DNA from: an uncultured bacterium
Lineage (GTDB): Bacteria; Hydrothermota; Tepidihabitantia; SM23-42; CAYGYG01
Reading direction: 5' to 3'
DNA length: 64,000 nucleotides
Assembly (NCBI GenBank): GCA_964354155.1
Contig: CAYGYG010000007.1
Location: 49,903-113,902 of the forward strand
In this document: positions 2,798-47,407 of the stretch, in pieces
Numbering within the stretch: position 1 is the first letter of the stretch
Layout of the letters: every line of letters begins with the position of its first letter
Program-made: the position numbers and the translations under genes
The notes under the pieces: model-generated
Database searches by the model: none
Told to the model about the DNA's origin: nothing
The model's input: only the letters and a program-made list of their open reading frames with translations

Positions 2798-2856
2798 AAA
2801 GAATATCGGGCCAGGGCTGTATGGCCCTGGCCCGAATGTTTAAGGAGGCACGAATC

Positions 2857-8341: not shown

Positions 8342-9370
8342 ATGAAACGATTGAATGCTTTGGTCATATGTCTCGTGCTCGGACTGGGCCTGCTGAGTGG
8401 AGCTTTTGCTGCCCAGCGAGTGGTTTTGTGTGAAATGCTTTATGGAGAAGGTTGAGGAAGTTGCCCTGCAGCTAGTAGTCTACTAGCAACCCTGGCGATA
8501 AGATATCCGGGTCGGATTGCCCAGACTGAACTGCATTGCGCGTCCGGCTATCCACTTTACCGAGCCGAAGCCTATAATCGGGCGATGTGGTACGGTGCTC
8601 AATACTACAGCGATACCTACATGGACGGCACGTATGCCGGCCATTCGGGCAATTCCGCCAACTGGGAAAACTTGCTGGTCGCTCGTATGAATAGGCCTTC
8701 GCCGATGACGGCGACGATGTGGGGTACGTATAATCCGACCACTCGAAATGGCAGGATCTACTCCAAGTTCCGGAATGATTCGACCGGAACCATAGCGGGG
8801 AATATCTACTTCCTTATCATTCGGGACAGTGTTCGTTATTCATCCCCCAACGGTGACCTTTGGCATAACTACGTCGCGCACGACTACCTGCCAAGTGAAG
8901 TAGGTACTCCGGTAACGGTCCTTCCGGGCGATACCGTAACCCAGTACCGTGATTTTTCGATACCCGATTCATTCAATGTCAGCAAGTGCATGATCTATGC
9001 CTGGGTACAAAGAACCACGGGGACCAGGGAGACCTATCAATCTGGCATCAAGAATGTGACGAGTCTTCTTGAGGTTGCCGAGCAGTCGAGTCGGGTTCCG
9101 GATTTGGCCAAGATCGAGCTTGTCCCGAATCCCTGCAACGGAGAAACCAGCTTCCTGCTTGAGCTACCGGCGGGCGCGCCTTATGCCATTAAGCTCTTCG
9201 ATATGTCAGGAAGACAAATAAGGGTAATGGCAGGTCAAGCAAAAGGCGGCAAGGCAAGAATAACCTGGAATTGCAGAGATGACCGGGGCCGGTCGGTTAA
9301 CCCGGGAGTCTATTTCTATGCCCTGAACAGCAGTAGAATCAACGCTTCGGGTAAGATCATTGTAAGATAG
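8342..9370 (+). CDS. Secreted hypothetical protein with T9SS C-terminal domain; single in-frame TGA at 8453-8455 (candidate selenocysteine, U-G-S-C context)
   Basis: An AAGGAGG ribosome-binding site precedes an ATG at 8342, and a signal peptide (MKRLNALVICLVLGLGLLSGAFAAQ) follows. The TGA and the downstream ORF 8585-9370 are in the same frame. The read-through peptide (GEG-U-GSCPAASSLLATL...) is continuous, and the downstream part has no signal peptide or start of its own. A T9SS C-terminal domain is present (ELVPNPCNGETSFLLELP...GVYFYAL). Confidence 0.5.
8471..8487 (+). promoter_or_regulatory. SECIS-like hairpin downstream of in-frame TGA (GCTAGTA-GTC-TACTAGC)
   Basis: It has a perfect 7-bp stem and a G-containing 3-nt loop. 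The loop lies 23-25 nt 3' of the TGA at 8453. Confidence 0.3.
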
Positions 9371-20262: not shown

Positions 20263-21372
20263 CTACTCGAAGAGCTTCAAGTATTCGGCGTAGCCTTCCT
20301 TCACCAGATCCTCCTTAGGGATGAAGCGGAGCGAGGCGGAATTGATGCAGTAGCGCAAACCGGTCGGGGCAGGCCCGTCATCAAAGACATGGCCGAGGTG
20401 GGAATCAGCGTGCTTGCTTCGTACTTCGGTCCGGACCATCCCTTGGTTCGTATCTGGCTTTTCGACGACCACCGCGGCGTCGATAGGCTTGGTGAAGCTG
20501 GGCCAGCCGCATCCGGAGTCGAACTTGTCTTTCGAGCTGAAGAGCGGTTTGCCAGAGACGATATCGACGTAGATCCCGTCGCGCTTGTTGTTCCAGTATT
20601 CGTTGCCGAAAGGTCGTTCGGTTTGGTTTTCCTGGGTTACCGTGTACTGAAGTGGGGTCAGTCGTTTCTTCAACTCCTCGGCCGAGGGTTTGATATGCGG
20701 GTTATTATTCATCGATAACTCCTTTTTTTCTTCACGGCCCCAGGTCTTCTTGATGTAGGCGTCACGGCCCGACAGGAGTCGATAGCTCTTGTAGCGCACC
20801 GGGCACTTCTTGTAGTAGTCCTGATGATATTCCTCGGCGGGGAAAAACTCGGTCAACTTGAGAATCTGGGTCGCGATCTCTTTCTTGAACCGACCGCTCT
20901 CTTCAAGGGACTTCTTCGACGCCTCGGCCAGCCTCTTCTGGTCGTCGCTCGTGTAGAAGATCGCGGTCTGATATTGGCTCCCGCGGTCCGCAAATTGGCC
21001 GCCGGCATCGGTGGGATCGATCTCGTGCCAGAACACATCGAGCAGTCTCTCATAGCTTGTTCGTTTTGGATCGTACGTGATCTGAACCGCTTCAGTGTGG
21101 CCGGTTGTCCCGGAACAGACCTCTTCGTAGGTGGGATTCCTGACCGTACCCCCGGTGTAGCCCGCGGTCACCTCAATAACCCCTTCAATCTTTTCAAAAG
21201 GCGCCTCAAGGCACCAGAAACAGCCGCCGGCAAATACGGCCTTGGCCAGCTTGGCGTCCGGGCCAGTAGCCGCCTTTGCTTTCTTGGACGACGGACTGCT
21301 TTGAGAGAAGCTCAACAGTACCGGCATGAAAACTACAAATAAAGTCAGCGTTTTCATTATTGTGTTCTCCAT
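20263..21372 (-). CDS. msrAB: Bifunctional peptide-methionine sulfoxide reductase MsrA/MsrB with signal peptide
   Basis: It has the MsrA motif GGCFWC and the MsrB motifs CGWPSF and RYCINS. A signal peptide is present at the N-terminus. Confidence 0.9.
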
Positions 21373-23426: not shown

Positions 23427-23936
23427 ATGGATATCAAGGCGATTCTGGACGGAATGAAGATTGCTCTGCAGACTGAGCTGAATGGCATTCAGTTCTACAA
23501 GACAGCGGCCGAGCATACCGAAGACAAAAAGGGTAAAGAGACTTTCCAACTGCTGGCCGGTGATGAAGCCCGCCATTTCGTAGCGTTGAAAAAGCAGTAC
23601 GATGCTTTGGCCAAGTCAGGCAAGTGGGCCGAACCAGTTGAGCTTGGTGATGCCTCAATCCTCAAAGGACCCAGTCCGATCTTCTCAGACGAATTCAAGG
23701 CGGGCATCAAGGACCGGCACTACGAGATGTCCGCACTGAGTATTGGCGCACTGCTGGAAACGAATTCGATTGATTTCTACAGGAAGATGAAGGAGCAGGT
23801 AAGCGACCCGCCGGCGCGTCGGCTTTTTGAAGAACTCCAGAAGTGGGAGGAGAATCACCTGTCGGCAATCGTTGCGCAGCTCAATCTGGTTAAAGAAGAT
23901 TACTGGGCTCAGGCTAATTTTGTACCGCTGTTCTAA
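23427..23936 (+). CDS. Ferritin-like/rubrerythrin-family diiron protein
   Basis: It has paired E...ExxH helices (ELNGIQFY...GDEARHF; LLETNSIDFY...WEENHL). Confidence 0.6.
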   Translation: MDIKAILDGMKIALQTELNGIQFYKTAAEHTEDKKGKETFQLLAGDEARHFVALKKQYDALAKSGKWAEPVELGDASILKGPSPIFSDEFKAGIKDRHYEMSALSIGALLETNSIDFYRKMKEQVSDPPARRLFEELQKWEENHLSAIVAQLNLVKEDYWAQANFVPLF

Positions 23937-24707: not shown

Positions 24708-25649
24708 ATGATTAAACCAATAGCCATTGGCCGCCGAGTGCCGTTTTTCGTGCTTAAAGACCAGAATGGTAGCGACGTGCGGATGAGCAAGCTGGCGGGC
24801 AAGCGTGTTTTGCTGTCGTTTCACCCGCTGGCATGGACGAAAATATGCTCTCGACAAATGAAGTCGCTGGAAAAGAATCAGTCCGTATTCGACAAGCTGA
24901 GGACGCTTGCATTGGGCCTGAGTGTCGATACGATACCATCCAAATTCGCATGGGCTAGGTCGCTGTCGATCAAGAAGACGCAGTTGCTGTCGGACTTCTG
25001 GCCCCATGGGCAGGTGGCCAAGAGACTCGGCCTATTCCGCGCCAAGCAGGGATTCTCGGAGCGAGCCAACGTTGTCATCGACGAAAAGGGAAAGGTAGTA
25101 TTTGTAAAAGTCTACCCGATCAAGGAACTTCCTGATATCAAGGAGATAATCAGTTTTCTCAAGGGTGCTGGCACGGTCAAGGGTGATTTGGACAAGCTTC
25201 TGGTCGCGGCCATGGAGAGCGAGGTGATGGCTCAGAAATTTTATACGAAGGCGGCGGCCCGCGCGGCAAGCGATACCGGAAAGGAATTCTTCAACGAATT
25301 GGCTGCATTCGAACACTTCCATTATGAAAATGTGAAGAAAATAATCGAATCTCGGAACAAAAACCGGACGTTAAGGCTGACTGGTCCGAAGCCAAGATTG
25401 AGGGAGGTTACGTCGGAAGTGAAGGGCGAGTTTGAGCCTAATAAGGATGAAATCATTAATGTGTTGGGTCTGGCAATCAGAGCGGAGAAGGAAGCGCAGG
25501 AAAGGTACAAGAGAATAGCGCGGATGATGGAAGACGATGAAGGCAGGGAAATATTCAGCGGTCTGGCCCACGATGAATTCCGCCACCAGCGCTTGCTTGA
25601 AGACCAGCTCTACCAGATATCCAACCGGGGAACGATAATCTGGGAATAA
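24708..25649 (+). CDS. Peroxiredoxin (AhpC/TSA, Bcp-like) fused to a C-terminal ferritin-like/rubrerythrin diiron domain
   Basis: The N-terminal part has 'FHPLAWTKICSRQ' (peroxidatic T-x-x-C). The C-terminal part has two E...E/HxxH helices (ESEVMAQKFY...FEHFHYENV; AEKEAQERY...AHDEFRHQ). Confidence 0.7.
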   Translation: MIKPIAIGRRVPFFVLKDQNGSDVRMSKLAGKRVLLSFHPLAWTKICSRQMKSLEKNQSVFDKLRTLALGLSVDTIPSKFAWARSLSIKKTQLLSDFWPHGQVAKRLGLFRAKQGFSERANVVIDEKGKVVFVKVYPIKELPDIKEIISFLKGAGTVKGDLDKLLVAAMESEVMAQKFYTKAAARAASDTGKEFFNELAAFEHFHYENVKKIIESRNKNRTLRLTGPKPRLREVTSEVKGEFEPNKDEIINVLGLAIRAEKEAQERYKRIARMMEDDEGREIFSGLAHDEFRHQRLLEDQLYQISNRGTIIWE

Positions 25650-30573: not shown

Positions 30574-30794
30574 GAAAAACCTCCTGTTGCAGTAAGCCTA
30601 ATCAGTTTGGATTGCGACTTGAATCGATGCTGATATGATAACCAGAAAGGGGCCGGTGTCAACGCGAGATACGATTGGCCTTCTCGGTAATCGACAGAAA
30701 GGACTTGACATAGAGCACGCAGAGCATAGGATGTCCGTGCTGGGAATAGTCCTCAAGATGAGACCTTTGCTTTCTCTTGCCCGGCGAGGAATCG

Positions 30795-32183
30795 ATGATG
30801 CGTGTTGCTGTTCTGCTTGGCGCCGCGGTCTTGTTTGGTCTGGCACCGTGCGGCACCGGGTTACTATTCGGGCCGTTTGAGAGCAAGCCGTATCTCACGC
30901 CAACCGGCACGCCCTGGAGTTCGGTCAATATCGGCTGGAATACGGCGACGCTCGAGTCAACCAGGGTTGCCTATGGACTGACCTCGGCGCTGGGCGACAC
31001 GATCAGACTAGAGGGTGTGCGTAACTACCACCACGCAAGGATCACTGGATTGCTGCCTGACTGCGAATACTACTACCGCGTGCTGCCGGCCGGGAATCTG
31101 AACCGATTCAGGACTTTCCCGGCCCGATCGGACACCGGCGTATTTATCGTCGTGGGGGATACCCGTACGGATTCGGCTGCCCACCAGTCCGTGGTCAATG
31201 AAATTGCCGGGTACGACCACGATTTCATCATCAACTGCGGCGACCTGGTCGAGGACGGTAACCTTGACAGCCTCTGGCAGATGTTTTTCAGTATCGAAGA
31301 TACCTTGCTTGAGACAACGCACTTCCTGCCGGTACTAGGCAACCACGAAGCGCCCTATTGGCAATATGATACGCTCTTCAGCCTGCCGGACTCGGAAGAG
31401 TACTATTCAGTGGACTGCGGCAATATTCATGTCGTGGCGCTCAATACCGAGACCAACCTTGTCGGCCCGCAGCTGTCATGGCTGAGGCAGGATCTGGAAC
31501 GGAACCGAAATAATGACCGGACTGACTGGACGATTGTCGCCTTCCATCGTCCGCCCTACTCATCCGGCAGTCACGGCAGCCAGCTCGACGTGCGCGAGGC
31601 TTGGTGCCACCTTTTCGAGACTTACCAGGTTGACCTGGTTTTCGCCGGGCATGATCACGACTACGAGCGCACCGTACCGATCAACGGGGTCGTTTACGTT
31701 ATCTCGGGTGGGGGTGGAGCGCCGCTGCGCGGGGTCGGCACTAATCCGTGGACTGCCTATGCGGAGAGTACGTACCAGTTCTGTCAGGTCGAAATCAAGA
31801 ACCGTTATCTAAGAATGCGAGCCGTCAAACCCAACGGTACGGTGTTCGATTCATTGATCATCGACAAAGGCCGATTCGAACCCAAGGGGACGACGGGTCT
31901 GCCCAACCGCAGACTTAGCGTCATTCCCAACCCGATGCACGACCAGGTGGTGATCAGCTGTCAGCTCGACCAGCCCCGGCGACTCCGGCTCAGCATCGCC
32001 GACCACGCGGGTCGCGAAGTGACAATCCTCAAGGACACTGATGAACCGGCCGGACTCTACCTTCTGATCTGGGATGGTCGGGATCGGCGCGGAAAATCGG
32101 TCGGTGCTGGCGTCTACTTTGTGGTCGCGCAGGTGGGCGGCGAGGTATGGATGAATAAGATCACACGGGTGTCGGGCGATTGA
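30795..32183 (+). CDS. Purple-acid-phosphatase-like metallophosphoesterase with T9SS C-terminal domain
   Basis: The metallophosphoesterase motifs are present (GDTRTD; GDLVEDG; VLGNHE; AFHRPPY; GHDHDYER). The C-terminal domain matches the T9SS pattern (IPNPMHDQVVIS...GVYFVVAQ). Confidence 0.75.
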   Translation: MMRVAVLLGAAVLFGLAPCGTGLLFGPFESKPYLTPTGTPWSSVNIGWNTATLESTRVAYGLTSALGDTIRLEGVRNYHHARITGLLPDCEYYYRVLPAGNLNRFRTFPARSDTGVFIVVGDTRTDSAAHQSVVNEIAGYDHDFIINCGDLVEDGNLDSLWQMFFSIEDTLLETTHFLPVLGNHEAPYWQYDTLFSLPDSEEYYSVDCGNIHVVALNTETNLVGPQLSWLRQDLERNRNNDRTDWTIVAFHRPPYSSGSHGSQLDVREAWCHLFETYQVDLVFAGHDHDYERTVPINGVVYVISGGGGAPLRGVGTNPWTAYAESTYQFCQVEIKNRYLRMRAVKPNGTVFDSLIIDKGRFEPKGTTGLPNRRLSVIPNPMHDQVVISCQLDQPRRLRLSIADHAGREVTILKDTDEPAGLYLLIWDGRDRRGKSVGAGVYFVVAQVGGEVWMNKITRVSGD

Positions 32184-32253: not shown

Positions 32254-33936
32254 TCAGTGACTGACGACCATTTTTCTTGTTGCCACGCCCTGCTCAGTCT
32301 CAAGGCGGTAGAAATAGACGCCCGAAACGACCGGCTTGCCTGACGCATCTGTGCCATCCCAGTAAGCTGAGTGTCGGCCCGCCGCAAGTCTGCTCTCAAG
32401 AACCGTTGTCACCAGCTTGCCGGACAGGTCGAATACCCTGAGTGACGCGCGCGATGGCACTTCAAGCTGGAACGCAATCCTGGTTCCGGCCACAAGCGGG
32501 TTGGGCGTGTTCTGAGCCAGCACGAACCGGCTCTGCTCCCAGCGGCTGCCGCTTACCTGCTCTTCAATCCCGACGGCAGGCAGAGGCCGGCGCCCGGCCG
32601 CGATGTAGCTCCAGGTTGTCCGGCCATTGCGGTGGTCGGACCACTCGCAGTAGACATAGTTCGAGTCGGTGTCGATCTGCTGGTAATCGCCCTGCTGTGA
32701 GGAACTCGCCGCTGTATATGAAGGCGTGACATCGTTCACTCGTTCATTTGGACGCCAGGTTACGCCGCCGTCGGTCGAGTATGAATAGTAGGTGTCGCCA
32801 GAGTTGGTTGGATAGTAATTGCGGGAATCAAGCCAGAAGACGTGGGGCCGGTTGTAACGGTCAATGCTGATCCATGAGCAGTACTGGTCAGAATCAGTAT
32901 TGGTATCATCGTTAGCCCTTACCGGTGCGCCCCAGGTCGTGCCGCCATCGGTTGACGATATTACGCAGATGTCCCAGCCGGCGCCGCGCATACTGTTCTG
33001 AACCGTAACGTAGATCTTGCCGGTCGCATCGCAGGCCATGGATGGAAAACTATGATTGGCCCGCCAGCCGCTGAGATGGCTCGACGATGTCAGAGAGAGA
33101 ATCCGGGTCGCGGTACCCCAGGAAGCGCCGTTGTCCGTAGAGCGGTTGAACCAAATTTCGGTCGGGACCCACTGGCACGGCTGTCCCCAGACTGCATAGA
33201 CGTGGCCGTTGGTCGGATTGACCGCCGGGCACGAGCCTTGGCCGCCGGCGCTTGATATATTCTGGTCGCCGGTATTCCAGGTTCGACCCCAGTCCGAAGA
33301 GCGGCACATACGGATCCAGTTGGTGCCGCCCGTGAAGTCGCTGTAGGAGCAATAGAGATAGCGTCCCCAGGTCTTAAACATCGGTTTGTCCGTGAAAGTA
33401 CTGGTCCCGCGATCAACGCGAACCGTATCACTCCAGGTCAGCCCGTAATCGGACGAGAATCGGATGAAGAGATGATAACCTCCGCCCGATGGCTGGTTAA
33501 TGCCCAAATTGTAGCAGGAATCACGGCCATTGCCGTTGATGCAAACGTCGACCCAGAACCAGCCTTGATGGTCGTAGTAGGCGGTGTAGGTTTGACCAGA
33601 GTTCGTGCTGCGAGCCCAACGACATTGCCAGGCCGAGCCAGTGTTGTAGTTGTAGCCAAGAACGATGTATCCCGGTTGGGTGCCACCCTTGCGTACGACG
33701 AACAACGCTCCATCCGGAGGGTTGGAGTAATCCATGCTGTCCGCTAGTGCGTTGGCCAGCCACGGCGGGTCGGGATTGAGGAATCGCTGGGGAGGGTCGG
33801 TCGGTACCGAAACCGGGCCAGTTGGACTGTAATCGGGAATCGTCGGCATCGCTTGCTGGGCAAAAGCCCCGCCGACCCCACCGAAATAACCACCAAACAG
33901 TAGGCCTACAGAGAGCAGACACGCAAGCTTTCTCAT
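32254..33936 (-). CDS. BNR/Asp-box (sialidase-like) secreted protein with T9SS C-terminal domain
   Basis: The likely start is the internal ATG at 33936, which gives the signal peptide MRKLACLLSVGLLFGG and has an AAAAGGAG ribosome-binding site. Asp-box motifs are present (SDYGLTW, SDWGRTW, STDNGASW, STDGGTTW, STDGGVTW). The C-terminal domain matches the T9SS pattern (GVYFYRLETEQGVATRKMVVSH). Confidence 0.7.
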   Translation of the reverse strand: MRKLACLLSVGLLFGGYFGGVGGAFAQQAMPTIPDYSPTGPVSVPTDPPQRFLNPDPPWLANALADSMDYSNPPDGALFVVRKGGTQPGYIVLGYNYNTGSAWQCRWARSTNSGQTYTAYYDHQGWFWVDVCINGNGRDSCYNLGINQPSGGGYHLFIRFSSDYGLTWSDTVRVDRGTSTFTDKPMFKTWGRYLYCSYSDFTGGTNWIRMCRSSDWGRTWNTGDQNISSAGGQGSCPAVNPTNGHVYAVWGQPCQWVPTEIWFNRSTDNGASWGTATRILSLTSSSHLSGWRANHSFPSMACDATGKIYVTVQNSMRGAGWDICVISSTDGGTTWGAPVRANDDTNTDSDQYCSWISIDRYNRPHVFWLDSRNYYPTNSGDTYYSYSTDGGVTWRPNERVNDVTPSYTAASSSQQGDYQQIDTDSNYVYCEWSDHRNGRTTWSYIAAGRRPLPAVGIEEQVSGSRWEQSRFVLAQNTPNPLVAGTRIAFQLEVPSRASLRVFDLSGKLVTTVLESRLAAGRHSAYWDGTDASGKPVVSGVYFYRLETEQGVATRKMVVSH

Positions 33937-34187
33937 ATTACGCTCCTTTTGTTTGTCCTCAACTATGCAGATTCTCTCATCTTGTAAAGATGTTTGGACA
34001 AGATGCGTGACAGTTGGTTTAGTCAATAAGGGCGGTCTACGCGAGGCTTTGCTCAAGTCATCATATTCAATGAGTTTGGCCCAGGCGGAGAAATGATCGC
34101 CAATCGACAGATCGTACACCTGCTGTCTGCACCCGCACGATTTTGGCACCTTCATCGATCGTACATGGAATTCTTCTATTTGCCTAT

Positions 34188-34215
34188 TGACATGCGACGG
34201 CCGACGGTTATACTG
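34188..34215 (+). promoter_or_regulatory. Sigma70-like promoter (TTGACA-16-TATACT) followed by inverted repeat TTCGC-GAATT-GCGAA (34237-34251)
   Basis: It has consensus -35 and -10 elements. The palindrome lies about 20-35 nt downstream of the predicted transcription start, which is a candidate operator position. Confidence 0.45.
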
Positions 34216-34311
34216 GCGAGTTAACATTAGTTGGATTCGCGAATTGCGAAACAGGTGGCGGGCCCATAATGAGGCATGCGGCATCATGTGAAAACAACAA
34301 GGAGGTCTAAT

Positions 34312-36534
34312 TTGAAGACGAAGTGTCTGCTCCTTACTCTGCTTCTATTAGTGACAGCTGGGCTTGCCGACTGGGAAGCGGTCGGTCCGTACGGGGGATA
34401 CCTGCGCTCGGTCGTCGTGTCGCACACCAACGATAATATCGTCTACGCGGTATCGTACAACTACCCGGCGCAGTACGCACGATCGACCAACGGCGGAGCC
34501 ACCTGGACGACCATGGGCGGCATCCCGAGTAACGCCTACGCCACGGCGATCGACCCTACCGATCATAACAAGCTCTACACCGGCGGCGGCTCCTATTTCT
34601 ACCGTTCGACGAACGGCGGCACGACCTGGCTCAGCACCTACGCATCAAACACATATCCGTACGGGATGGTCGTGAATAGTTCGACGCCCACGACCGTGTA
34701 TGGGGCCGGCTACACCTACGACGGCACCAAGTGGCGCATGTCATTCTACAAGAGCAGCAACAGCGGCGCGAACTGGAGCACAACCTATCTGGCCGACAGT
34801 GCGAGTTACGCCTACTGCATCGGTCTTGACCGAACCAATCCCAGCAACATCTACGTCGGCGGCTACACCTACATGAACAGCACGTACTATCCCATGATCT
34901 ACAAATCAAGCAACGGCGGTACGAATTGGACCCAGCTGACCAATGGCATCCCAACGTCCGGGTACTACGTATATTCGGTGGCGGTGCATCCGACCAACTC
35001 GAACATCGTCTATCTCGGCATCTACACGGCAGGGATCTACCGGTCAACCGACGCCGGCGCCTCGTGGACCCAGGTTTCGACCCACTACTACAACTATGCC
35101 ATGGCCACGAGCATTGCCGACCCAAATGCTGCCTTGGTCACCGGCTACAATGACGCGTACAAGACGACGAACGCCGGTGCGACCTGGTTTGCCGACACGG
35201 TCGGGTTCAAGGGATTGAGTGCCTTCGGTCTGGCCATGAGCCAGACCAATGGACAGGTTGCCTATGTCGGTGACAACATGGGTGCTTTCAAGACGACCAA
35301 TGGCGGGACACGGTGGTTTTCGACCAACAACAATCTTAACCTCGGGGCGATCGCCAGTTTTGCGGTGGCACCTTCGTCACCGGCGACGATCTATACTTCG
35401 TTTGAGGAAGTTGGTGTGTTCAAAACGACCAACAGCGGCACGTCGTGGACTCAATTGCCGACCCCGGTGGCCTGTGGCAACATCTGTGAATTTGCCGTCC
35501 ACCGGACCAGCCCGCTTGTTGTCTACGGGTTGGAAGGCGCAGGCTGAGGCAACGCCGAGCTCTACAAGAGCACAGACGGCGGGGCCGTCTGGTCAAGTGC
35601 GCTAGATAGTTACTATGCCGATGGCGGTGCCTTAATAATCGATCCGAACAACAACTCGGTGTTGTACAGCGGTGGTGCGATTTACGACGGATCGACTTAT
35701 CTGATGGGCGTGTCGAAGTCGACCGATGCCGGTGTAACCTGGAGCCGCGATACGCTGACCACGGCCTACAGTGTCACCTACGCGCTGGCGGTCGATCGCA
35801 GTAATTCGAATGTCGTCTACGCCGGCGGCTATACCGGCCTGTACAAGAGTACCGACGCTGGCAATACTTGGTTTCAGTCCTCAATCGGGCTTACCGGACA
35901 GGTATACGACATTGCAGTCGCTTCAACTAAGGCCAATATCGTCTATGCCGGATCCAGTGCGGGTGTGTTCAAGTCGACCAATGCCGGTGCGTCCTGGACC
36001 AATACCGGGTGCACCGGGGTGAACGCAGTTCTCATCAATCCCAGTAACGAGAATGAGATATATGCCGCGACGTCGAGCGGTGTATTCAAGAGTACCACCG
36101 GAGGCGGCGGATGGACGGCGATGAACGCCGGCCTTCAAAGCCTGAACACGACATCGCTCGGGATCTACCCGGCGCAGTATCTTTACACGGGTACGGACGG
36201 TGCCGGCCTATATCGCTGGAGCTTCCTGCTCGGGACACAAGAACAGGAACCCAGCCAGGGCAGGACGGTCTTGGCGGCACAGCCCAATCCTTGCCGGGGC
36301 CGGACCCAGATCACGTACCAGCTGGTACGCACGGTCAAGGTCAATCTTGGGGTGTACGATGCGCAAGGCCGACTGGTTAGACAGCTGGCGTGCGGCGAGC
36401 AGCCCCAGGGCGTACATTCAGTGGCCTGGGATGGTCTTGATCGACGTGGCGACCGGGTCGCCAACGGCGTCTATTTCTGCAGACTGAAGGCGGATGGACT
36501 GAAGCAGATGCAGAAACTGGTGATCGTTGAGTAG
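34312..36534 (+). CDS. BNR/Asp-box repeat secreted protein with T9SS C-terminal domain; single in-frame TGA at 35545-35547 (candidate selenocysteine or nonsense)
   Basis: An AAGGAGG ribosome-binding site plus a TTG start at 34312 gives the signal peptide MKTKCLLLTLLLLVTAGLA. ORFs 34276-35547 and 35659-36534 are in the same frame. The repeat protein runs continuously across the TGA (...VVYGLEGAG-U-GNAELYKSTDGGAVWS...). The C-terminal domain matches the T9SS pattern (GVYFCRLKADGLKQMQKLVIVE). Confidence 0.5.
35573..35591 (+). promoter_or_regulatory. SECIS-like hairpin downstream of in-frame TGA (CAGACGGC-GGG-GCCGTCTG)
   Basis: It has a perfect 8-bp stem and a GGG loop. The loop lies 34-36 nt 3' of the TGA at 35545. 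Confidence 0.3.
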
Positions 36535-36548
36535 GATTGAATCGATCA

Positions 36549-36588
36549 AAAAGCGCCCGGCAAGTAACGCCGGGCGCTTTTCTTTTGA
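36549..36588. terminator. Bidirectional rho-independent terminator (AAAAGCGCCCGG-loop-CCGGGCGCTTTTCTTTT)
   Basis: It has a GC-rich stem flanked by A/T runs. Confidence 0.8.
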
Positions 36589-36591
36589 CTT

Positions 36592-38004
36592 CTAGCTCGC
36601 CGGGCCTTTTGGTCTCAGGCGGGGTCCGGACGGCGTATCTTCGACCACAAAGCCAAGTCCATCGATTTCGCCGCGCACGGCGTCGGCTTCGGCGTACTTT
36701 CTCTGCTTGCGGAGCTGAGTTCTTCTCTGGGCAAGCTCCTGTGCCTTGTTCTCGTTCTCTAATGATTTGACCTGGAGCTTGTGCAGTTCGTCGATCCGCC
36801 GGGCCGAGTGTTTGAGGTCCAGTCCGAGCACCTGGTCCATTGTCTCAACTTGAGCCAGGACGTTTCCCGAGCGGGAATTGAATGTCTCAAGAAGGACCGC
36901 CAGAGCCTTGGCCGTGTTAAGGTCATCGGCGATGGCCTCATCAAAACCGGGGGTCGGTTCTCGTGATGACCGGGCCGCGGTAGGCATCCCAAGGCCAGCG
37001 CATTTCTGCCAGAGTCGGACCAAGGTGGTCTGAGCCGAGCCCAAGGCCTCCCACGTGAAGTTGGATGGTTTTCGGTAGGAGCCGCCCAGAAAGAAGTAGC
37101 GGGCCGAAAGAGGATGGAATCCACGTTGTATCAAGTCGTCAACTGTGTAGAGGTTGCCGAGGGATTTGGACATCTTCTGACCGTCAACATTGAGGAATTG
37201 AGTGTGGAACCAGTATTGGACAAAACGCTTGCCGGTTGCGCCTTCGGACTGAGCGATTTCATTGGTGTGGTGAATTCTAACATGATCGATGCCGCCGGTG
37301 TGAATGTCAAACTGTTCGCCCAAGTACTTCATGCTCATGGCTGAGCATTCGATGTGCCAACCCGGGAAGCCTCGGCCCCAGGGGCTGTCCCACTGCATAA
37401 TGTGCTTGGGTTGGTTGGTCACCCAGAGCGCAAAGTCCCAGGGCTGCCGGCGCTCGGCATCGACCTCGACCCTGAGACCGGCCTGCTGTTCTTCAAGATC
37501 AAGTTGGGCAAACTTCCCGTAGTCCGGGAACTTCGATGTGTCGAAGATGACGCCGACTTTAGTTCGGTAGGTCAAACCCCGTTCTTCAAGCCTCTTTATG
37601 AGCGCAATCATGTCGGCAATGTGTTCGGTTGCACGGCATACGATGTGCGGCCTCAAGACGTTGATCAAGTCCATGCTTCGCCAGAAGTAGTCTTCGTAGA
37701 ATCGGGCAATCTCCAACGGGGGTTTGCCTTCTTTCTGAGCCCGGGCTTCGATCTTGTCGTCACCCGAGTCTTCGTCGCTGGTCATGTGGCCGACATCAGT
37801 AACGTTCATGACTTGCTTGACTCGGAATCCCGCATACTCGAGGGTGCGGCGCAGGATGTCGCTGTTCGTGTAGGCGCGCAGGTTGCCGATGTGAGTGTAA
37901 AAATAGACGGTCAAGCCGCAGCAATACATGCCGACCTGACCCGAGACAAGGGGGACAAATTCATCGACCCGGCGTGAAGATGTGTTATAGAGACGAAGAT
38001 TCAT
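36592..38004 (-). CDS. cysS: Cysteinyl-tRNA synthetase
   Basis: It has the HIGN (HIGH-class) motif and the KMSKS motif. The start is assigned to the internal ATG (MNLRLYNT...) that matches the family N-terminus. Confidence 0.9.
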   Translation of the reverse strand: MNLRLYNTSSRRVDEFVPLVSGQVGMYCCGLTVYFYTHIGNLRAYTNSDILRRTLEYAGFRVKQVMNVTDVGHMTSDEDSGDDKIEARAQKEGKPPLEIARFYEDYFWRSMDLINVLRPHIVCRATEHIADMIALIKRLEERGLTYRTKVGVIFDTSKFPDYGKFAQLDLEEQQAGLRVEVDAERRQPWDFALWVTNQPKHIMQWDSPWGRGFPGWHIECSAMSMKYLGEQFDIHTGGIDHVRIHHTNEIAQSEGATGKRFVQYWFHTQFLNVDGQKMSKSLGNLYTVDDLIQRGFHPLSARYFFLGGSYRKPSNFTWEALGSAQTTLVRLWQKCAGLGMPTAARSSREPTPGFDEAIADDLNTAKALAVLLETFNSRSGNVLAQVETMDQVLGLDLKHSARRIDELHKLQVKSLENENKAQELAQRRTQLRKQRKYAEADAVRGEIDGLGFVVEDTPSGPRLRPKGPAS

Positions 38005-38050
38005 CGGGCCCGCGTTGGCTTGCTTCTCGATACGAACAATCCGACTTGTC

Positions 38051-38998
38051 CTATTGGCCGAGATAGACGATTTTCCCGGTACGGGCGGCGGTGCCGGCTC
38101 GGGCTTGGAAAAAGTAGACGCCCGGTGTGACGCGGCGGCCGATGCTATTCGTGCCGTCCCAGTCGATGAGCGATGAGACAGCGTCAAAGGATTTGACCAG
38201 GCGGCCAGAAGCATCATGGATTTGCATTGAGAGTTTTCGGTCGGCAGCCCGGGGACCTAAGACAATGAACCTGGTTGTCTTACGGAACGGGTTAGGTGAT
38301 ACCAGAACCGACCACGAAGGGATCGGTGTTTCTTCGACCGAAGGATCCTGGACCCCAACGATACCACTGACTTTGTAGACCCAGCCGGTCCGGGAATTGG
38401 TGCTGAACCACAGAAAGCCGCCGCCGATCGCAAGGCCGGCGGAATTGGCGCGCTCGGTCGGATAGCTGTTGATGACGTTCATGTTGGCCGGATCGAGTTC
38501 ATAGATCGTCGTATTACCGCCTATCGCCCAGAGGTGGCCACCGTAGTATTCCAGGTCCTGAGGCCGCCAGCTGACATTGAACGTCGCCAGCACCTGGGTA
38601 GGGTCGTTGTAGCTCAGCCGATAGATCGCCTGTGCGTTCTGGTCTGAATGCCACAAGTCCTGACCATCATAGGCCATGCCGTAGGAATAGGATCCAGGCG
38701 ATGTCCAGGTGCCGACTGCGTTGCCGCTCGTGTCGATCTTATGGATTGCATTAGGATAGTAGCCGAGCCACAGATATGTACCATCATGGCCCAACCCATC
38801 CAGTCCGCCCGCGTACGATATCGTGGAAACAACCTGCATGTTGCTGGGGTCGATCTTGAATATTTGATCGACCGCATTCTCGCAAGCCCAAACATAACCG
38901 TTGCCAAAGGCGACTCCGTTGGCATAATCACCGACATCAACCGAGTCGACAATGGTGAAGTTAGCCGCAATCAGAACCAATGTACATAGTGCTGACAT
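38051..38998 (-). CDS. Secreted beta-propeller-like hypothetical protein with T9SS C-terminal domain
   Basis: It has repeated ~45-aa blades with conserved W/Y/G. The C-terminal domain matches the T9SS pattern (LVSPNPFRKTTRF...GVYFFQARAG...KIVYLGQ). Confidence 0.55.
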   Translation of the reverse strand: MSALCTLVLIAANFTIVDSVDVGDYANGVAFGNGYVWACENAVDQIFKIDPSNMQVVSTISYAGGLDGLGHDGTYLWLGYYPNAIHKIDTSGNAVGTWTSPGSYSYGMAYDGQDLWHSDQNAQAIYRLSYNDPTQVLATFNVSWRPQDLEYYGGHLWAIGGNTTIYELDPANMNVINSYPTERANSAGLAIGGGFLWFSTNSRTGWVYKVSGIVGVQDPSVEETPIPSWSVLVSPNPFRKTTRFIVLGPRAADRKLSMQIHDASGRLVKSFDAVSSLIDWDGTNSIGRRVTPGVYFFQARAGTAARTGKIVYLGQ

Positions 38999-41893: not shown

Positions 41894-43843
41894 ATGAAAA
41901 CTAAGATAATTCTGCCATTGTTTCTTGTTGCTCCGTTACTTTTTTCCGGCATTGACAATCTTCGCTTTCTTGGTCACAACGAAGTGAACCGGGCCCACCT
42001 TATGGACGCTGAGGTGGTGGGGACTCGCGCCTATCTCTGCGTCGGGATGAATCCCGGTCTTGAAGTCTACAACATTGCGAATCCGGCGAGTCCAACGCGG
42101 CTGTACCAGGCAGGACCGGCGGCCTGGCGGTGCTTTGCTGACCGTGACACGACGCTCTTTCTCTTCTGTCGGCGTGACGGTGTCATTCTCTATGATATCT
42201 CTGGCGCCGGCGCCCCGGGTCAGCTCGGGCAATACGATCCGCCCGGCAATCTCGAGGCGTTGGAGGGTGGAGATTTGATCGGCGATACCCTCTATTGTGC
42301 GGCGCACCAGAACGGCATCTATGCGATCGATATCACGAATCCCTCCAATCCGACCAAGGTCGGACAGATTTCGCTTGATACCTCTGCCGCCTGGAATGTC
42401 GAAGCCCGGGACTCGTTTCTTTTCGTCGCCAACGGCCGGTTCGGTCTCTCGGTTGTGGGCGTGCGGGGCGGCATGCACCTTATGTCGCGCCTGGCTCTGC
42501 CGGGGCTGGCCAATGACATCGTGCTCGACGGTAATGTCGCCGCTGTATCATTAGGCGGGCACGGCCTGGCTACGGTTGATATCAGCAATCCTCATGCCCC
42601 GGTTCTGCTTGACACGGCCATGACCGCGGGCGCGGTCTGGGGTTCAGGCATCACCGGCCATCAGGTTGTTACAGGTTCATGGTACGTTCTTGAGACCTTT
42701 GACGTCTCCGTCCCGGCCAACATCGTACGGACCGGCTGGGACAACACCAAGACTTTTGCCCACGGTGCCGACATCAGGAGTGACAGCTTGATCGCGATCG
42801 CCGATTGGCGCGGCATGTCTTGCTACCACATCGGTAGTGATCTGGGTGCCGATATCGATCTTGAGTTTGAGACTCTCGACTTCGGAGCGGTGCCGGTTTC
42901 GCGCGACACAACGGTTCTGGTGCGTAACACCGGTAGTGTGGCCCTTAACGTTACCTCGATTCGTGTTCCGGCCGGTATCTCGGCGACGCCCAATTCATTT
43001 ACGGTTCAGCCGGGCGACTCCGTTTCGGTACGGGTAACGGCGGCCGGTCCAGGGGCAGTCTCCGACACCATCATTTTCAACTCCAATGACCCGGATGAAG
43101 CCCGAAAACTGCAAGAAGTGTACAAGAATAACACGTCGTTTCCTCAATACGGTTCGATCGCACCCGACTTCACGCTCCAGGGGACCGACGGGCGGAGCCA
43201 CACCCTGTCCGCATATCGAGGCAAGGTTGTCTTTCTCCAGTTCGGTGGAGGGTGGTGACCGCTCTGCGGATCGCAGGCTGCGATCACCGACGGCTCGATT
43301 TTTTCACGCTATGACACTTCACGGGTCAGGATCTTTGAGATCGGTTCGAATTCCGGCGAACTCGCCGAATTCATTCAGGTCTTTGGCCAGCGCTACGTCG
43401 GCTTGACCGATAATATCGGGGTCTATTCAACCTACCGCGTGCCCCGGCCCGAGGCCCCTTACCCGCAAGACTACATCATTGATCAGCAAGGCATTGTCCG
43501 ATACTGGTCGGATGAATATGACCCGCAGAGAATAATCAAAATCGTTGACCGGTTGCTAGTAACCGGCGTAGAGGAGAATCCACGCGAAGTGGTCCAAAAA
43601 GGCCCAGAGCTCAGGATCTACCCGAATCCGACTCGTAACGCGGTCACCATTCAAGCAACAGGTTTGGCCAAAGGCGGATTTTCGGTCAGGATCTACGATT
43701 CCAGCGGACGGATGGTCCAGGACAATCACTTCGTTGATGACGGCAAGATGCCGTTGCGTCTGAAGTTGCCGGCCGGTGTCTATTTCGTCTGCATTGAATC
43801 AGCAGGAGTGTTAACCAGAACCAGCATGATTGTTGTCAAGTGA
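41894..43843 (+). CDS. Multidomain T9SS cargo: LVIVD-repeat beta-propeller + thioredoxin-fold (TlpA/redoxin-like) domain with candidate selenocysteine (TGA 43256-43258, W-U-P-L-C) + T9SS C-terminal domain
   Basis: LVIVD-like repeats are present (YAIDITNPSNPTKVGQ; ATVDISNPHAPVLL). ORFs 41894-43258 and 43403-43843 are in the same frame. Across the TGA the sequence reads ...IAPDFTLQGTDGRSHTLSAYRGKVVFLQFGGGW-U-PLCGSQ...PQDYIIDQQGIVRY. This matches the TlpA/ResA pattern APDFTL..DG....LS..RGKVV.LNFWASWCGPC...P..FLID..G.I with U in place of the first Cys. The C-terminal domain matches the T9SS pattern (IYPNPTRNAVTI...GVYFVCIESAGVLTRTSMIVVK). Confidence 0.6.
43269..43285 (+). promoter_or_regulatory. 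SECIS-like hairpin downstream of in-frame TGA (GATCGCA-GGC-TGCGATC)
   Basis: It has a perfect 7-bp stem and a GGC loop. The loop lies 18-20 nt 3' of the TGA at 43256. Confidence 0.35.
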
Positions 43844-44288: not shown

Positions 44289-46049
44289 ATGAGACGATTC
44301 TTAATAGTGAGTCTTGTGTGTCTCTTTGCTGTGGCAATGGCTGAGGAATTCCCCTATGTTCCGGGAATGAAGGTGAACCTCGGTACTGGCGACGTCCGGC
44401 CCGATCAGGAGACCAAGGTGATGGATAGCTATACGGACCCAGTCTGGAAACATCTTGAGAAGATGACGCTGGTGGATCGCAAGAACTCACAGATAAATAT
44501 CGAACTCGAACCGCAGGCCAGCCAGGCGGCACTCGACTTGGCCCGTCAAATCGAGAATCTGTGGAACGGTGGGTCGTTCGAAGAAGCGCTCTCCCGTTTT
44601 CCGGAACTCGGTAATCTTACCGATGTTGGCCAAATGGCGATCGGCAATGCCTGGCGTGTACCCATCCCGACCTACACTCAGTCCAAATGGGGTCACGATG
44701 TAAGGGTCGGCAACCGTGATTCGGTTATGGGGACGCACCTTGACATTCATCGTGCCTCAGGCAACCTTCTCTCGGTGTTGCTGCTTGATGAACCGGGGAA
44801 CAACTGGCGTTGGACGATGAATCTGTCGACTAACGGCGGCGCGACCTGGATCGAGACCTACGATTGGTGGGCCAGTTTCGAGATCGACATCGGTGCAACC
44901 GTGCTGGCCAATCATATCTATGTCGGCTACGCTCATCAGACCTACGGACGGATCCGGCGTTGCCGTGCCAATAATGGCGCGAGTGAGAACTTCAACAACG
45001 GTCAGGCGTTCATTAACGTCTACACGACGACCCCCCCGGATTCGGTCAACGAAATCGCAATAACGGGCAACCAGGACTTCTTCAACAACCGCCTCTACTA
45101 TGTGTCACTGACCACACAGGGCAACCTTGCCTACTACTGGAGCGATTCAGGCGCGATCAGCTGGACCGAAGTGACGACCGGCGTCACCAACGGCCATCGC
45201 GGACTCGATGCAGCCTGCAATGAAGGATATGCGGACTATTTCCTGCTTGCTTCCTACATCAGTCAGCGGGACAGCGTCTATATCGACGGCCGTAGCAGCA
45301 CAGCCTGGACGCACTTTATCCGCTACCCGATCGGTTCACACTCGGTCTATGACTACACCGCAATCGGGGGCTGGCGCGATACGATTTTCGGTGTCTTCGG
45401 TTTTCGGGGCCCGGTTACCTATCATTGTCGATATCTGACTAACTACACGGCCGGCGGCGGCACATGGTTCTTCGGCAATATCGGCGGCGATACGACTACG
45501 ACCTCCGAATCGCCCGATGCGACCCTACGCGATGGCGGCGGCTGTGGCGTTGTTTACCGCTATTACACAGCAACGCGTCAGATGCGCTACACCTGGCGCC
45601 GCTATGCTGGTTCGTGGTCCACCCCTGTTTCGGTTGCTGATTACGAACCCTACTATACCAAGCCGGCAATTGAGTACCTGGGCAGCAGTGTCTTTGGCAC
45701 GGTCTATCATACCTGGAACACTCCATACCGATGGGCCTACTTTGATCGTAGCGATTGGATCGGTATCGACGAAGAGAATACCGCCCGATTGACTCAGCTG
45801 GGACATCTAGCGCCCAATCCGGCACGCCTGCTGACCAACCTGACTTACGCGTTGAAGAACGCCGGCAATGTGAAGATCGCGCTCTATGATGCGACCGGTC
45901 GGGTGGTGAAGACGCTGGTTAATGAGCAGATGAACGCTGGTGAGCACAATGTGCGTATCAGCGCGCAGGATCTGACGGCTGGTGTCTACTTCGTACGGAT
46001 GGATACACCAGATGGCATTTCGAGCACACCGATGACGATAGTGAAATAG
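44289..46049 (+). CDS. Secreted hypothetical protein with T9SS C-terminal domain
   Basis: An AAGGAG ribosome-binding site and a signal peptide (MRRFLIVSLVCLFAVAMA) are present. The C-terminal domain matches the T9SS pattern (LAPNPARLLTNLTYAL...GVYFVRMDTPDGISSTPMTIVK). Confidence 0.55.
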   Translation: MRRFLIVSLVCLFAVAMAEEFPYVPGMKVNLGTGDVRPDQETKVMDSYTDPVWKHLEKMTLVDRKNSQINIELEPQASQAALDLARQIENLWNGGSFEEALSRFPELGNLTDVGQMAIGNAWRVPIPTYTQSKWGHDVRVGNRDSVMGTHLDIHRASGNLLSVLLLDEPGNNWRWTMNLSTNGGATWIETYDWWASFEIDIGATVLANHIYVGYAHQTYGRIRRCRANNGASENFNNGQAFINVYTTTPPDSVNEIAITGNQDFFNNRLYYVSLTTQGNLAYYWSDSGAISWTEVTTGVTNGHRGLDAACNEGYADYFLLASYISQRDSVYIDGRSSTAWTHFIRYPIGSHSVYDYTAIGGWRDTIFGVFGFRGPVTYHCRYLTNYTAGGGTWFFGNIGGDTTTTSESPDATLRDGGGCGVVYRYYTATRQMRYTWRRYAGSWSTPVSVADYEPYYTKPAIEYLGSSVFGTVYHTWNTPYRWAYFDRSDWIGIDEENTARLTQLGHLAPNPARLLTNLTYALKNAGNVKIALYDATGRVVKTLVNEQMNAGEHNVRISAQDLTAGVYFVRMDTPDGISSTPMTIVK

Positions 46050-46111: not shown

Positions 46112-47407
46112 TCAGCGCAGCAGCAAGACTTTCTTCGTGTAGTTGTCAGTCGGCGTTTCGAGCCGGACAAAGTAAACACCGGCGGGCAGTGGCCGACCCG
46201 CATCATCAGTACCGTCCCACGTGACGTAGTGCGAAGGATGTGGGACGTGGGACGATATGTCAAATCTCTTTACCGCCTGCCCGGATACATCATAAATCAG
46301 TAATCTGGTTTCTTGCTTCTGACTTCCTTCACTTTCTGACCGCCGGCCTCTATCGTCTCCATTCTCGTATCGTGTATCCTGGATCATGTATCGGATAACG
46401 GTGTGTCTCCGGAACGGGCTACCTTGAACCTCCAGCAAGTCGGACTTGCCCAGACGACCGACGTTTTCTTCCGCGATGCCAGGGCGCCAATGTCGACTCC
46501 ACCAGGCCTGGGCTGAATCCGCGTGTACTTTCAGACTGAACGTGTCAAGAGCACCAATGATTGCAAACCCCAACCCCCAGACTTCCTGCCCCGCGGCGAG
46601 CGAAAAGGGCCCATAAGCCGTGCAGATCGAATAGTCGTATGGTCGGGTGGCCTCAGACAAGTGGATGGTTCCGCTGAGGAAATCAAATTTGGTCGTTTCG
46701 CTCATCTGGGTTGGTGGATAGACGTAGTACGCAGCATCAATCAGCGACAGATTGGACACTCGCCATGGTTGCAGCAGTTTGACCCCCACGGCAACATTTG
46801 GCGGAGCGGATGGCCACATGTAGACTAAGCGTCTTGCCGAGTCGGTTCTACCCCAATCGTCAGTCGCGTTTCCGTTTAGATCGAAGTCACACATGACGCC
46901 GACGTAGACGCCGCTCATCGTATTGTTGCTTCTATTCTGCACGTCGTAGCGAACTATTACGAAGTCATCATAGCCCGTCAAAGGCGCACCACGCCCTCCC
47001 CAGTAGCTGCGGACCTGGATTCCCTGGGCCTGAGTGGGACGGCTCGTATCGACGAGAGCACAGCGGAAAAGTTCGTGGGCGCCAAACCAAAGCGGAAAGA
47101 CATCGACAAGAGTGTCTCTGATCACCCAGTCATTGTGCAGGGCCGAGAATGGACGACTGTAGAAGTGGTCATGGACAGAATTGGGTGAATTCGCCACCAA
47201 CAACGATCCGAAGTAAAGGTGATTGAGTCCGCCTCTCTCATAGCGGAATCCGATGCCCGCCCCAGTATCCGGGGCGGTAAACCCAATGCCACCATTATAG
47301 GCACCGCTGAGTTGGGCATTACCTGTGTCGATCTCAACGGTTGTCCGCCCCTGAGGCCAGGCGAGAGCCGTCAATAGCAGTGACGTAACAAAAACGCCAA
47401 CCTTCAT
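46112..47407 (-). CDS. Secreted hypothetical protein with T9SS C-terminal domain
   Basis: It has a signal peptide. The C-terminal domain matches the T9SS pattern (LLIYDVSGQAVKRF...GVYFVRLETPTDNYTKKVLLLR). Confidence 0.55.
   Translation of the reverse strand: MKVGVFVTSLLLTALAWPQGRTTVEIDTGNAQLSGAYNGGIGFTAPDTGAGIGFRYERGGLNHLYFGSLLVANSPNSVHDHFYSRPFSALHNDWVIRDTLVDVFPLWFGAHELFRCALVDTSRPTQAQGIQVRSYWGGRGAPLTGYDDFVIVRYDVQNRSNNTMSGVYVGVMCDFDLNGNATDDWGRTDSARRLVYMWPSAPPNVAVGVKLLQPWRVSNLSLIDAAYYVYPPTQMSETTKFDFLSGTIHLSEATRPYDYSICTAYGPFSLAAGQEVWGLGFAIIGALDTFSLKVHADSAQAWWSRHWRPGIAEENVGRLGKSDLLEVQGSPFRRHTVIRYMIQDTRYENGDDRGRRSESEGSQKQETRLLIYDVSGQAVKRFDISSHVPHPSHYVTWDGTDDAGRPLPAGVYFVRLETPTDNYTKKVLLLR

Follow-up and report, generated by a model that had tools for sequence, protein, structure and literature searches.

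A probable selenocysteine codon and its RNA element in a family of secreted Asp-box beta-propeller proteins from uncultured WOR-3 bacteria

Described systems and the present gene

Bacterial genes of the E. coli fdhF type carry their selenocysteine insertion sequence (SECIS) within the open reading frame (ORF): an in-frame UGA, conserved among orthologues and found in organisms that possess tRNA-Sec, is followed by a small stable hairpin that is itself part of the coding sequence. In the published model of the bacterial SECIS (bSECIS), the hairpin has a loop of 3-9 nt, an upper stem of 4-16 bp and a G in the first two loop positions, its loop lies 16-37 nt past the UGA, and its minimum free energy is -7.5 kcal/mol or lower (PMC13188914). 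The gene described here lies on the forward strand of a 64,000-nt stretch of DNA from an uncultured bacterium (contig CAYGYG010000007.1), which we refer to in its entirety as the window. It extends from a TTG codon at 34312 to a TAG stop at 36532-36534 in one frame, the sole interruption of which is a TGA at 35545-35547, and it encodes a predicted double beta-propeller protein with a C-terminal sorting domain of the type IX secretion system (T9SS). From comparison of this gene with its relatives, we consider it very probable that codon 412, the in-frame UGA, is decoded as selenocysteine (Sec), and that these genes constitute a genuine and apparently undescribed family of selenoproteins.

The resemblance of the propeller family to described bSECIS genes extends to the UGA followed by a stable hairpin in the coding sequence, the G at position 1 or 2 of the apical loop, the placement of that loop 16-37 nt past the UGA, the conservation of the UGA among orthologues and the occurrence of tRNA-Sec. 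The family differs from those genes in having two adjacent hairpins, of which the SECIS-like one is distal, in a nucleotide sequence that is unusually invariant across a large and diverged family, in the lack of close Cys orthologues among the sequences found, and in its host protein, which is a beta-propeller rather than a thioredoxin-fold or molybdopterin redox enzyme. The mechanism appears to be ordinary bacterial decoding of UGA as Sec with an in-ORF SECIS, and what would be new is the protein family, with its unusual fold, its location and its want of close Cys homologues.

With respect to the protein, the nearest structural counterparts are the GH74 xyloglucanases (PDB 4lgn, 6p2n, 2cn2 and 1sqj), which likewise consist of two tandem seven-bladed Asp-box propellers and to which the sequence has partial, repeat-driven matches (E values of 1e-11 to 4e-4). 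At 17-20% identity this is a likeness of fold, and unlike these enzymes the propellers of the window protein are fused to a T9SS sorting domain; we know of no GH74 enzyme that contains Sec. Like type A cargo of the T9SS, the window protein begins with a predicted signal peptide and ends in a sorting domain (TIGR04183), and PorZ (PDB 5m11) also has two propellers followed by a C-terminal domain, but in the present gene the sorting signal is encoded downstream of a UGA that is predicted to be recoded. Secreted selenoproteins of the Redoxin/TlpA-like kind, in which Sec is paired with Cys in a U-x-x-C motif, are also extracytoplasmic, and the window appears to contain an example of its own at 41894-43843; the candidate partner Cys of the propeller protein, by contrast, stands 24 residues from the Sec, on another strand of a propeller blade, and the fold is unrelated. 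Term searches of a 2025-2026 selenoproteome review, deep-Sep and BSepDB returned no entry for this family. Our coverage of the literature was incomplete, and within it we found no selenoprotein described as a BNR, Asp-box or beta-propeller protein, as cargo of T9SS or type IX secretion, or as a product of WOR-3; an earlier description elsewhere is possible.

Conservation of the UGA and of the RNA element that follows it

A previous, sequence-only reading of the window had joined two ORFs, 34276-35547 and 35659-36534, into one gene of 753 aa split by a TGA. The two ORFs do share a frame, with the TGA at 35545-35547 as the only stop between them, and the Asp-box architecture continues across it as had been proposed, with eight boxes upstream and five clear ones downstream; the translation reads HRTSPLVVYGLEGAG up to the UGA, ending in VVYGLEGAG, and resumes as GNAELYKSTDGGAVWS. 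The length needs revision, as it assumed initiation at the ATG at 34276. The TTG at 34312 is the likely start and agrees with the N-termini of orthologues (P0001, a 97%-identical database protein, begins MKTKCLLL), which gives 740 codons, the UGA included.

Scans of genome and metagenome collections yielded 89 loci of the same subfamily, which together with the window provide 90 sequences and 97 homologous junctions. The metagenome scan used two search patterns, one of which (CG[NS][IL]C...) sits before the TGA and does not depend on the element after it, and a profile scan of contigs with a 4-sequence alignment returned mostly generic Asp-box relatives along with six true orthologues (L004-L009). 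Among these WOR-3-type genomes and metagenomes, in which the proteins are 40-65% identical, 96 of the 97 junctions have TGA and one has GGA, a conservation that is, on this comparison of sequences, far beyond chance. The exceptional locus (L087, the source of P0002) has its GGA (Gly) codon at 2636 and a frameshift ~150 codons (~450 nt) upstream; because the gene is frameshifted there and yet retains the hairpin sequence intact, we read it as an error of assembly or as a copy that has lately begun to decay. Every one of the 46 complete-gene loci has a single frame, broken by a single stop, that runs on to the T9SS domain; the TGA is preceded by ~400-500 codons, or by 148 in L087 with its frameshift, and followed by 318-342.

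The protein databases give the same picture in the form of separate halves. Searches with the joined sequence recovered dozens of clusters of 408-415 residues with 40-64% identity, more than 90 database proteins of ~408-415 aa terminate precisely at ...EG-x-G, and the downstream part alone recovered about 118 fragments of 270-336 aa with 40-66% identity. For two of the N-terminal proteins, one from a 586-kb contig and the other from a complete 2.3-Mb WOR-3 genome (CP070705.1), the underlying DNA has the in-frame TGA, followed by GNAELYKSTDGG and by an uninterrupted frame to the T9SS domain. The two halves have similar ranges of identity and similar evolutionary rates, and both are under purifying selection. 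The sequence-only reading had left room for a real nonsense mutation, and to this may be added a sequencing error or a pseudogene in this particular genome. Nothing beyond the stop codon itself speaks for such explanations, and they have next to no chance of being correct when the same TGA and the frame beyond it are kept in 96 independent junctions, from many assemblies that include a complete genome, and selection acts on both sides of it.

The UGA could also be a true stop that separates a 411-residue propeller protein from a second, separately initiated protein carrying the sorting domain, and every public annotation that we found does call two genes. The orthologues tell otherwise: they possess neither a conserved start codon nor a ribosome-binding site for a downstream gene, the first possible start being 16-113 codons past the TGA at a position that is not conserved from locus to locus, and a protein begun downstream would be without the signal peptide on which export of T9SS cargo depends. 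A separate downstream gene with its own start and signal peptide was the arrangement that the sequence-only reading had held to be incompatible with one split gene. The 15 codons directly after the TGA are, moreover, the most conserved of the entire gene, and because they are so conserved and yet have no conserved start before them, passage through the UGA is the sole route by which they can be translated. Add to this that the division would fall inside a propeller, and the existence of two independent proteins becomes extremely unlikely.

In many of these bacteria the family is present in more than one copy. Seven loci (L109, L110, L111, L113, L115, L123 and L129) have two junctions each, L099 and L108 share one 200-kb contig, and tandem paralogues are spaced ~2.2-2.4 kb apart, each with its own TGA and hairpins.

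The constraint on the nucleotide sequence beyond the UGA was assessed in 86 distinct junction sequences and in a codon alignment of 45 full-length genes. Third-codon positions are free to vary upstream of the TGA and are nearly fixed from +12 to +47, where Glu is encoded by GAG, Leu by CTC and Ser by AGC in 86/86 junctions and Val by GTC in 83/86. Codons +3 to +15 have a normalised synonymous-codon entropy of 0.13, as against 0.86 for the 271 other columns with a conserved amino acid, and the lowest 10-column window of the gene is that of codons +4 to +14. In the window this near-invariant block, synonymous sites included, occupies 35557-35592 and has the lowest synonymous-codon entropy of the gene.

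Two hairpins can be drawn in the block. The larger of them, designated H2, was noticed in the sequence-only reading and is confirmed as a perfect stem of CAGACGGC and GCCGTCTG closed by a GGG loop, at 35573-35591 (-12.5 kcal/mol, z = -4.1). As RNA it is written CAGACGGC-GGG-GCCGUCUG, with a stem that begins 25 nt, and a loop that begins 33 nt, after the UGA. Between it and the UGA lies a smaller hairpin that had been overlooked, H1 (GCUCU-ACA-AGAGC, 35559-35571, -4.1 kcal/mol), which begins 11 nt past the UGA. In alignment coordinates H1 covers +14 to +26, with 5 bp and a three-base loop that is not conserved and includes no G, and H2 covers +28 to +46, with 7-8 bp and a loop that is GGG, CGGGU, GGU or GGA in different members of the family, so written that a G at position 1 or 2 is followed by another G. 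RNAalifold recovers both hairpins from the alignment, in which 93.5% of the cells are paired. Variation within them is scarce, and that which exists fits the structure: one H2 pair is altered in three sequences, in each of them by a compensatory change of G-C into A-U, the top pair of H2 varies as C-G, A-U or U-A, and the top pair of H1 is U-A, U-G or, in L152, C-G. RNAalifold also suggests a mini-stem of 3 bp (GGY/GCC) at 35542-35556, with the UGA in its loop, which is G-C or G-U in most sequences and too short to evaluate.

By the bSECIS model introduced above, H2 qualifies in every respect, both in the window (8-bp stem, GGG loop, spacing of 33 nt, -12.5 kcal/mol) and in most orthologues (7 bp, loop CGGGU, spacing of 32 nt, -9.3 kcal/mol), whereas H1 by itself fails for want of a G in its loop. 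A covariance model of the whole element has a single match in the 64-kb window, of 81 bits, and none (E < 0.1) in 74 loci, ~560 kb in total, that contain distant Asp-box propeller genes; as the element is absent from those loci, it is not a mere by-product of coding for Asp-boxes. Rfam has no match at the gathering score in the window, and a match near the site is at the level of chance (E = 3).

H2 is nevertheless written in the codons of an Asp-box, ACA GAC GGC GGG nCC GTC TGG, which encode T-D-G-G-x-V-W (35569-35592 in the window, as S-T-D-G-G-x-V-W). The residue before the Trp of this box is Val in 85 of the 86 family sequences, and at the same position none of the twelve other Asp-boxes of the window protein has Val, the residue there being Thr (in seven of them), Asn, Ser, Arg or Gly. 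The GUC codon concerned pairs with GAC in the stem, and the protein sequence of this Asp-box appears, from this comparison, to be constrained by the RNA. Such an arrangement would illustrate how an RNA signal can be encoded inside a protein repeat, the Asp-box codons forming the SECIS hairpin and being frozen by it, and the near-invariant 36-nt element should serve as a simple probe for further members of the family.

Fold of the protein and the candidate selenocysteine site

The joined translation matches Sortilin-Vps10, PSII_BNR, BNR repeats, FlgD_ig and the T9SS type A sorting domain in Pfam and NCBIfam. For the C-terminal region (36274-36531, approximate limits), the score is 34.7 bits for TIGR04183 (cut-off 23) and 48 bits for FlgD_ig, and Por_Secre_tail, at 23.6 bits, remains below its cut-off of 27. 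The hydrophobic N-terminus, MKTKCLLLTLLLLVTAGLA, is judged by eye to be a signal peptide, with cleavage before DWEAV (34312-34368), and it aligns with the N-termini of orthologues.

The fold was modelled on a full-length homologue without the UGA (P0006, 39% identity, Leu at the site) by means of AlphaFold, with a predicted local distance difference test score (pLDDT) of 86 and a predicted template modelling score (pTM) of 0.77; C-terminal fragments that MAFFT had misplaced on the repeats were excluded from the structure alignment. The model consists of two tandem seven-bladed propellers, and the window protein has 13 clear Asp-boxes and one that is degenerate. When the model was compared with the PDB by Foldseek, the top 25 matches were all GH74 structures, with template modelling (TM) scores of ~0.6 and 17-20% identity, and PorZ was at rank 26. 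The residue aligned with the UGA falls in a loop (410-415 of P0006) between two strands of one blade, 405-409 and 416-421, and the first strand of that blade (392-397) begins three residues after the position aligned with Cys388 of the window protein. If the usual topology of beta-propellers applies, Cys388 and residue 412 are probably on the same face of the propeller.

Cys388 and Cys392 belong to a C-G-N-I-C motif (35473-35487), and the subfamily as a whole conforms to C-G-x-[ILV]-C-x15-E-G-x-G-U-G-N-A-E-L, in which U is the UGA-encoded position; if this codon is read as Sec, the predicted junction peptide of the window protein is TSPLVVYGLEGAG-U-GNAELYK. The Cys at -24 and the Gly at -23 are present in 86/86 distinct sequences and the Cys at -20 (Cys392) in 81/86. 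It had been remarked that no Cys lies nearby, which is right for the linear sequence and wrong in so far as these two Cys residues, the first of them invariant, stand 24 and 20 residues upstream within what is modelled as the same blade. Full-length homologues that lack the TGA (31-41% identity) have no Cys motif, and at the position of the UGA they show Leu, Cys, Tyr or Gly, or else a gap. Since the invariant Cys is confined to the TGA-bearing subfamily, it would seem that UGA and Cys arose jointly, a circumstance that favours their being a functional pair and makes Cys388 the candidate partner of Sec.

A paralogue in the window itself (2-1900, forward strand, 32% identity) is likewise an Asp-box propeller protein of the T9SS cargo type and runs off the start of the window; it has no TGA, a Phe at the aligned position and no Cys motif.

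The UGA divides the gene into an upstream part of 411 codons (34312-35544), which encodes propeller 1 and the first blade of propeller 2 along with eight Asp-boxes, and a downstream part of 328 codons (35548-36531), which encodes the remainder of propeller 2 and the sorting domain. The point of truncation is thus one blade into the second propeller, off any domain border, and because the cut falls inside that propeller the terminated product is unlikely to be a tidy functional isoform. In the mechanism that we propose, the mRNA just downstream of a ribosome at the UGA would fold into the two adjacent hairpins, of which H2, with its 7-8 bp and a small loop (GG and then G, U or A) that begins 32-33 nt past the UGA, would bind SelB with Sec-tRNA(Sec); H1, the loop sequence of which is not conserved, would probably act as a compact spacer or helper hairpin. 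Only chains that insert Sec would acquire the rest of propeller 2 and the sorting domain and, because these follow the UGA, only Sec-containing chains could be exported to the cell surface. The Sec would be placed in the loop that joins strands 2 and 3 of its blade and would probably adjoin Cys388 at the entry to the first strand, and the two could form a selenenylsulfide or a ligand-binding centre on the propeller face. Our best guess as to function, a tentative one that leans on the model and falls somewhat short of even chances, is that such a centre occupies the face of propeller 2 in a glycan-binding or glycan-cleaving protein of the cell surface.

A bolder extension, which we regard as unlikely on the whole, is that the UGA is a selenium-gated switch for export, through which WOR-3 bacteria would couple the surface display of a set of proteins to their supply of selenium. 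When Sec-tRNA(Sec) is wanting, translation would yield a fragment of 411 residues that lacks the sorting domain; when it is at hand, the Sec would bind a ligand or take part in redox chemistry outside the cell, as part of a glycan-binding propeller for which there is no counterpart with Cys. The same switch would then apply to each of the TGA-split cargo genes of the window described below, in which the sorting domain is encoded 3' of the UGA.

Probable selenocysteine decoding, neighbouring genes and gene layout

ARAGORN was run on all fetched loci and identified a tRNA-Sec (anticodon UCA) at L150 (1166-1256, reverse strand), which scores 74 bits with the Rfam model RF01852 (gathering score 47). 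Immediately 5' of a propeller-family gene whose TGA is at 2633, and in divergent orientation to that gene, this tRNA-Sec ties the family physically to the Sec trait of the organism concerned.

Three other genes on the forward strand of the window are split by a single in-frame TGA, with a signal peptide encoded before it and a T9SS-type tail after it. The gene at 41894-43843 (TGA at 43256-43258) encodes LVIVD repeats, an immunoglobulin-like domain, an AhpC/TSA-Redoxin domain and Por_Secre_tail; its UGA falls in the motif GGGW-U-PLCG (U-x-x-C) of the AhpC/TSA-Redoxin domain, and a 7-bp hairpin with the loop GGC (43269-43285) starts 10 nt past it. The gene at 8342-9370 (TGA at 8453-8455) encodes a signal peptide, the sequence ...LYGEG-U-GSCPAA (also U-x-x-C) with the UGA at codon 38, and a T9SS-type tail, although the part after the TGA has no Pfam match; a 7-bp hairpin with the loop GUC is at 8471-8487. 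The gene at 2821-3891 (TGA at 3394-3396) encodes ...CWFGSC-U-EPYWGEF, with adjacent C and U, and a tail of the FlgD_ig/CHU_C type; it has a 6-bp hairpin with the loop AGUU at 3407-3422 and is flanked by PorV-like genes at 1913-2797 and 3901-4923 (28.5 and 30.2 bits, cut-off 27). The hairpins of these genes, of 6-7 bp, each have a G at position 1 or 2 of the loop, and all four TGA-split genes of the window encode secreted T9SS cargo with the sorting domain 3' of the UGA. The propeller gene had been ranked as the weakest of the four, a judgement that does not survive the conserved UGA, the hairpin and the candidate partner Cys; Sec decoding, which the sequence-only reading had listed as one option, is strongly supported by the combination of a SECIS-compliant hairpin under extreme synonymous constraint, a tRNA-Sec beside one family member and U-x-x-C genes in the same window.

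Twelve long ordinary ORFs of the window end at TGA, with the next stop 2-44 codons further on, and a genome-wide reassignment of UGA (genetic codes 4 or 25) was rejected on this account. A more restricted form of recoding would have a dedicated or variant tRNA insert Cys or Gly, either by way of a SelB-like factor and a Cys-charged tRNA or through a Gly suppressor. The single copy with GGA at the site and the Gly-rich surroundings (G-U-G) could be taken as hints of Gly, but that copy is frameshifted, has kept its hairpins and looks like an error or a case of recent decay, TGA is an ordinary stop in those twelve genes, the tRNA that adjoins one family member is a canonical tRNA-Sec, and no tRNA of the kind required was found in the window or the fetched loci. 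We hold this to be very improbable.

Programmed read-through without Sec, the remaining option of the sequence-only reading, would make the UGA a leaky stop that is passed by a near-cognate tRNA under stimulation by the hairpins, with a fixed ratio between a short form that lacks the sorting domain and a long, exported one, and with the nature of the inserted residue immaterial. It would account for the observation that within the subfamily a sense codon, that for Cys included, practically never takes the place of the stop, and it agrees with the tolerance of distant homologues for Leu, Tyr, Gly or Cys at the site and with a hairpin that lies farther downstream than those of the three other candidate Sec genes. 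A merely leaky stop does not explain why it is UGA in 96/96 cases and never UAG or UAA, why the hairpin satisfies the SECIS model down to the conserved GG of its loop, or why an invariant Cys accompanies the UGA; these organisms also have tRNA-Sec (L150) and other U-x-x-C genes, the truncation falls inside the second propeller and not at a domain border, and conserved read-through of cellular genes is, to our knowledge, rare in bacteria. Read-through of this kind is accordingly quite improbable, and Sec insertion is the reading that we prefer.

Several observations count against Sec insertion all the same. No sel genes were recognised by Pfam among 43 of the 48 long ORFs of the window, and no tRNA-Sec was found in its 64 kb. 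The usual pairing of Sec with Cys among homologues is weak, in that only the distant P0009 (41% identity) has a Cys aligned with the UGA; no close Cys orthologue was found, a search with a Cys-bearing junction peptide (7 candidates) included, and an exhaustive search of representative sequences gave mostly giant multi-repeat proteins and a handful with the same architecture, none of them with Cys in the family motif. The loop of H2 starts at +35/36, compared with +19 to +25 for the other three TGA-split genes of the window. Sequence variation in the element is too low for strong covariation statistics, and a competing long stem, with H1 at its tip and part of H2 in its length, accords with the alignment no less than the pair of hairpins does, which leaves the exact fold provisional. 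The long stem is not our preference, as its loop is without the conserved G and it leaves the compensatory change at pair 30:44 unexplained.

If Sec insertion is correct, these genes would constitute a large and apparently undescribed selenoprotein family built on a GH74-like Asp-box double propeller and not on a classical redox fold. In the uncultured WOR-3 lineage, whose genomes often carry several copies, it would be a selenoprotein exported by the T9SS and without close Cys counterparts. The selenoproteome of the phylum would be underestimated, the window alone having four such genes in 64 kb, and, because every public annotation found splits the genes in two, hundreds of database entries would be truncated.

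The layout of the locus is that of a single gene. A promoter-like site, TTGACA-16 nt-TATACT, was found by a consensus scan at 34187-34214 with 11/12 matches, a consensus match that in itself says nothing on function. The sequence AAGGAGG at 34299-34305, 6 nt 5' of the TTG start, is a predicted ribosome-binding site, and the TAG stop is followed by a strong hairpin at 36549-36581 (13-bp stem, 9 G-C pairs) which, together with a T tract (36549-36591 in all), resembles an intrinsic terminator. Promoter-like and terminator-like sites were also looked for between the two halves of the gene, and none was found. With one promoter-like site, one ribosome-binding site and one terminator, the region would appear to encode a single precursor of 740 residues.

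Convergent with this gene is one for cysteinyl-tRNA synthetase (36592-38217, reverse strand). A cluster of oxidative-stress genes, none of which is interrupted by TGA, includes an MsrA-MsrB fusion (20263-21372, reverse strand), rubrerythrin (23427-23936, forward strand) and an AhpC/TSA-rubrerythrin fusion (24708-25649, forward strand). The window is also unusually rich in genes for T9SS-type cargo, with further examples that have FlgD_ig or Por_Secre_tail C-termini at 30777-32183, 32254-34287, 38051-38998, 44289-46049 and 46112-47407.

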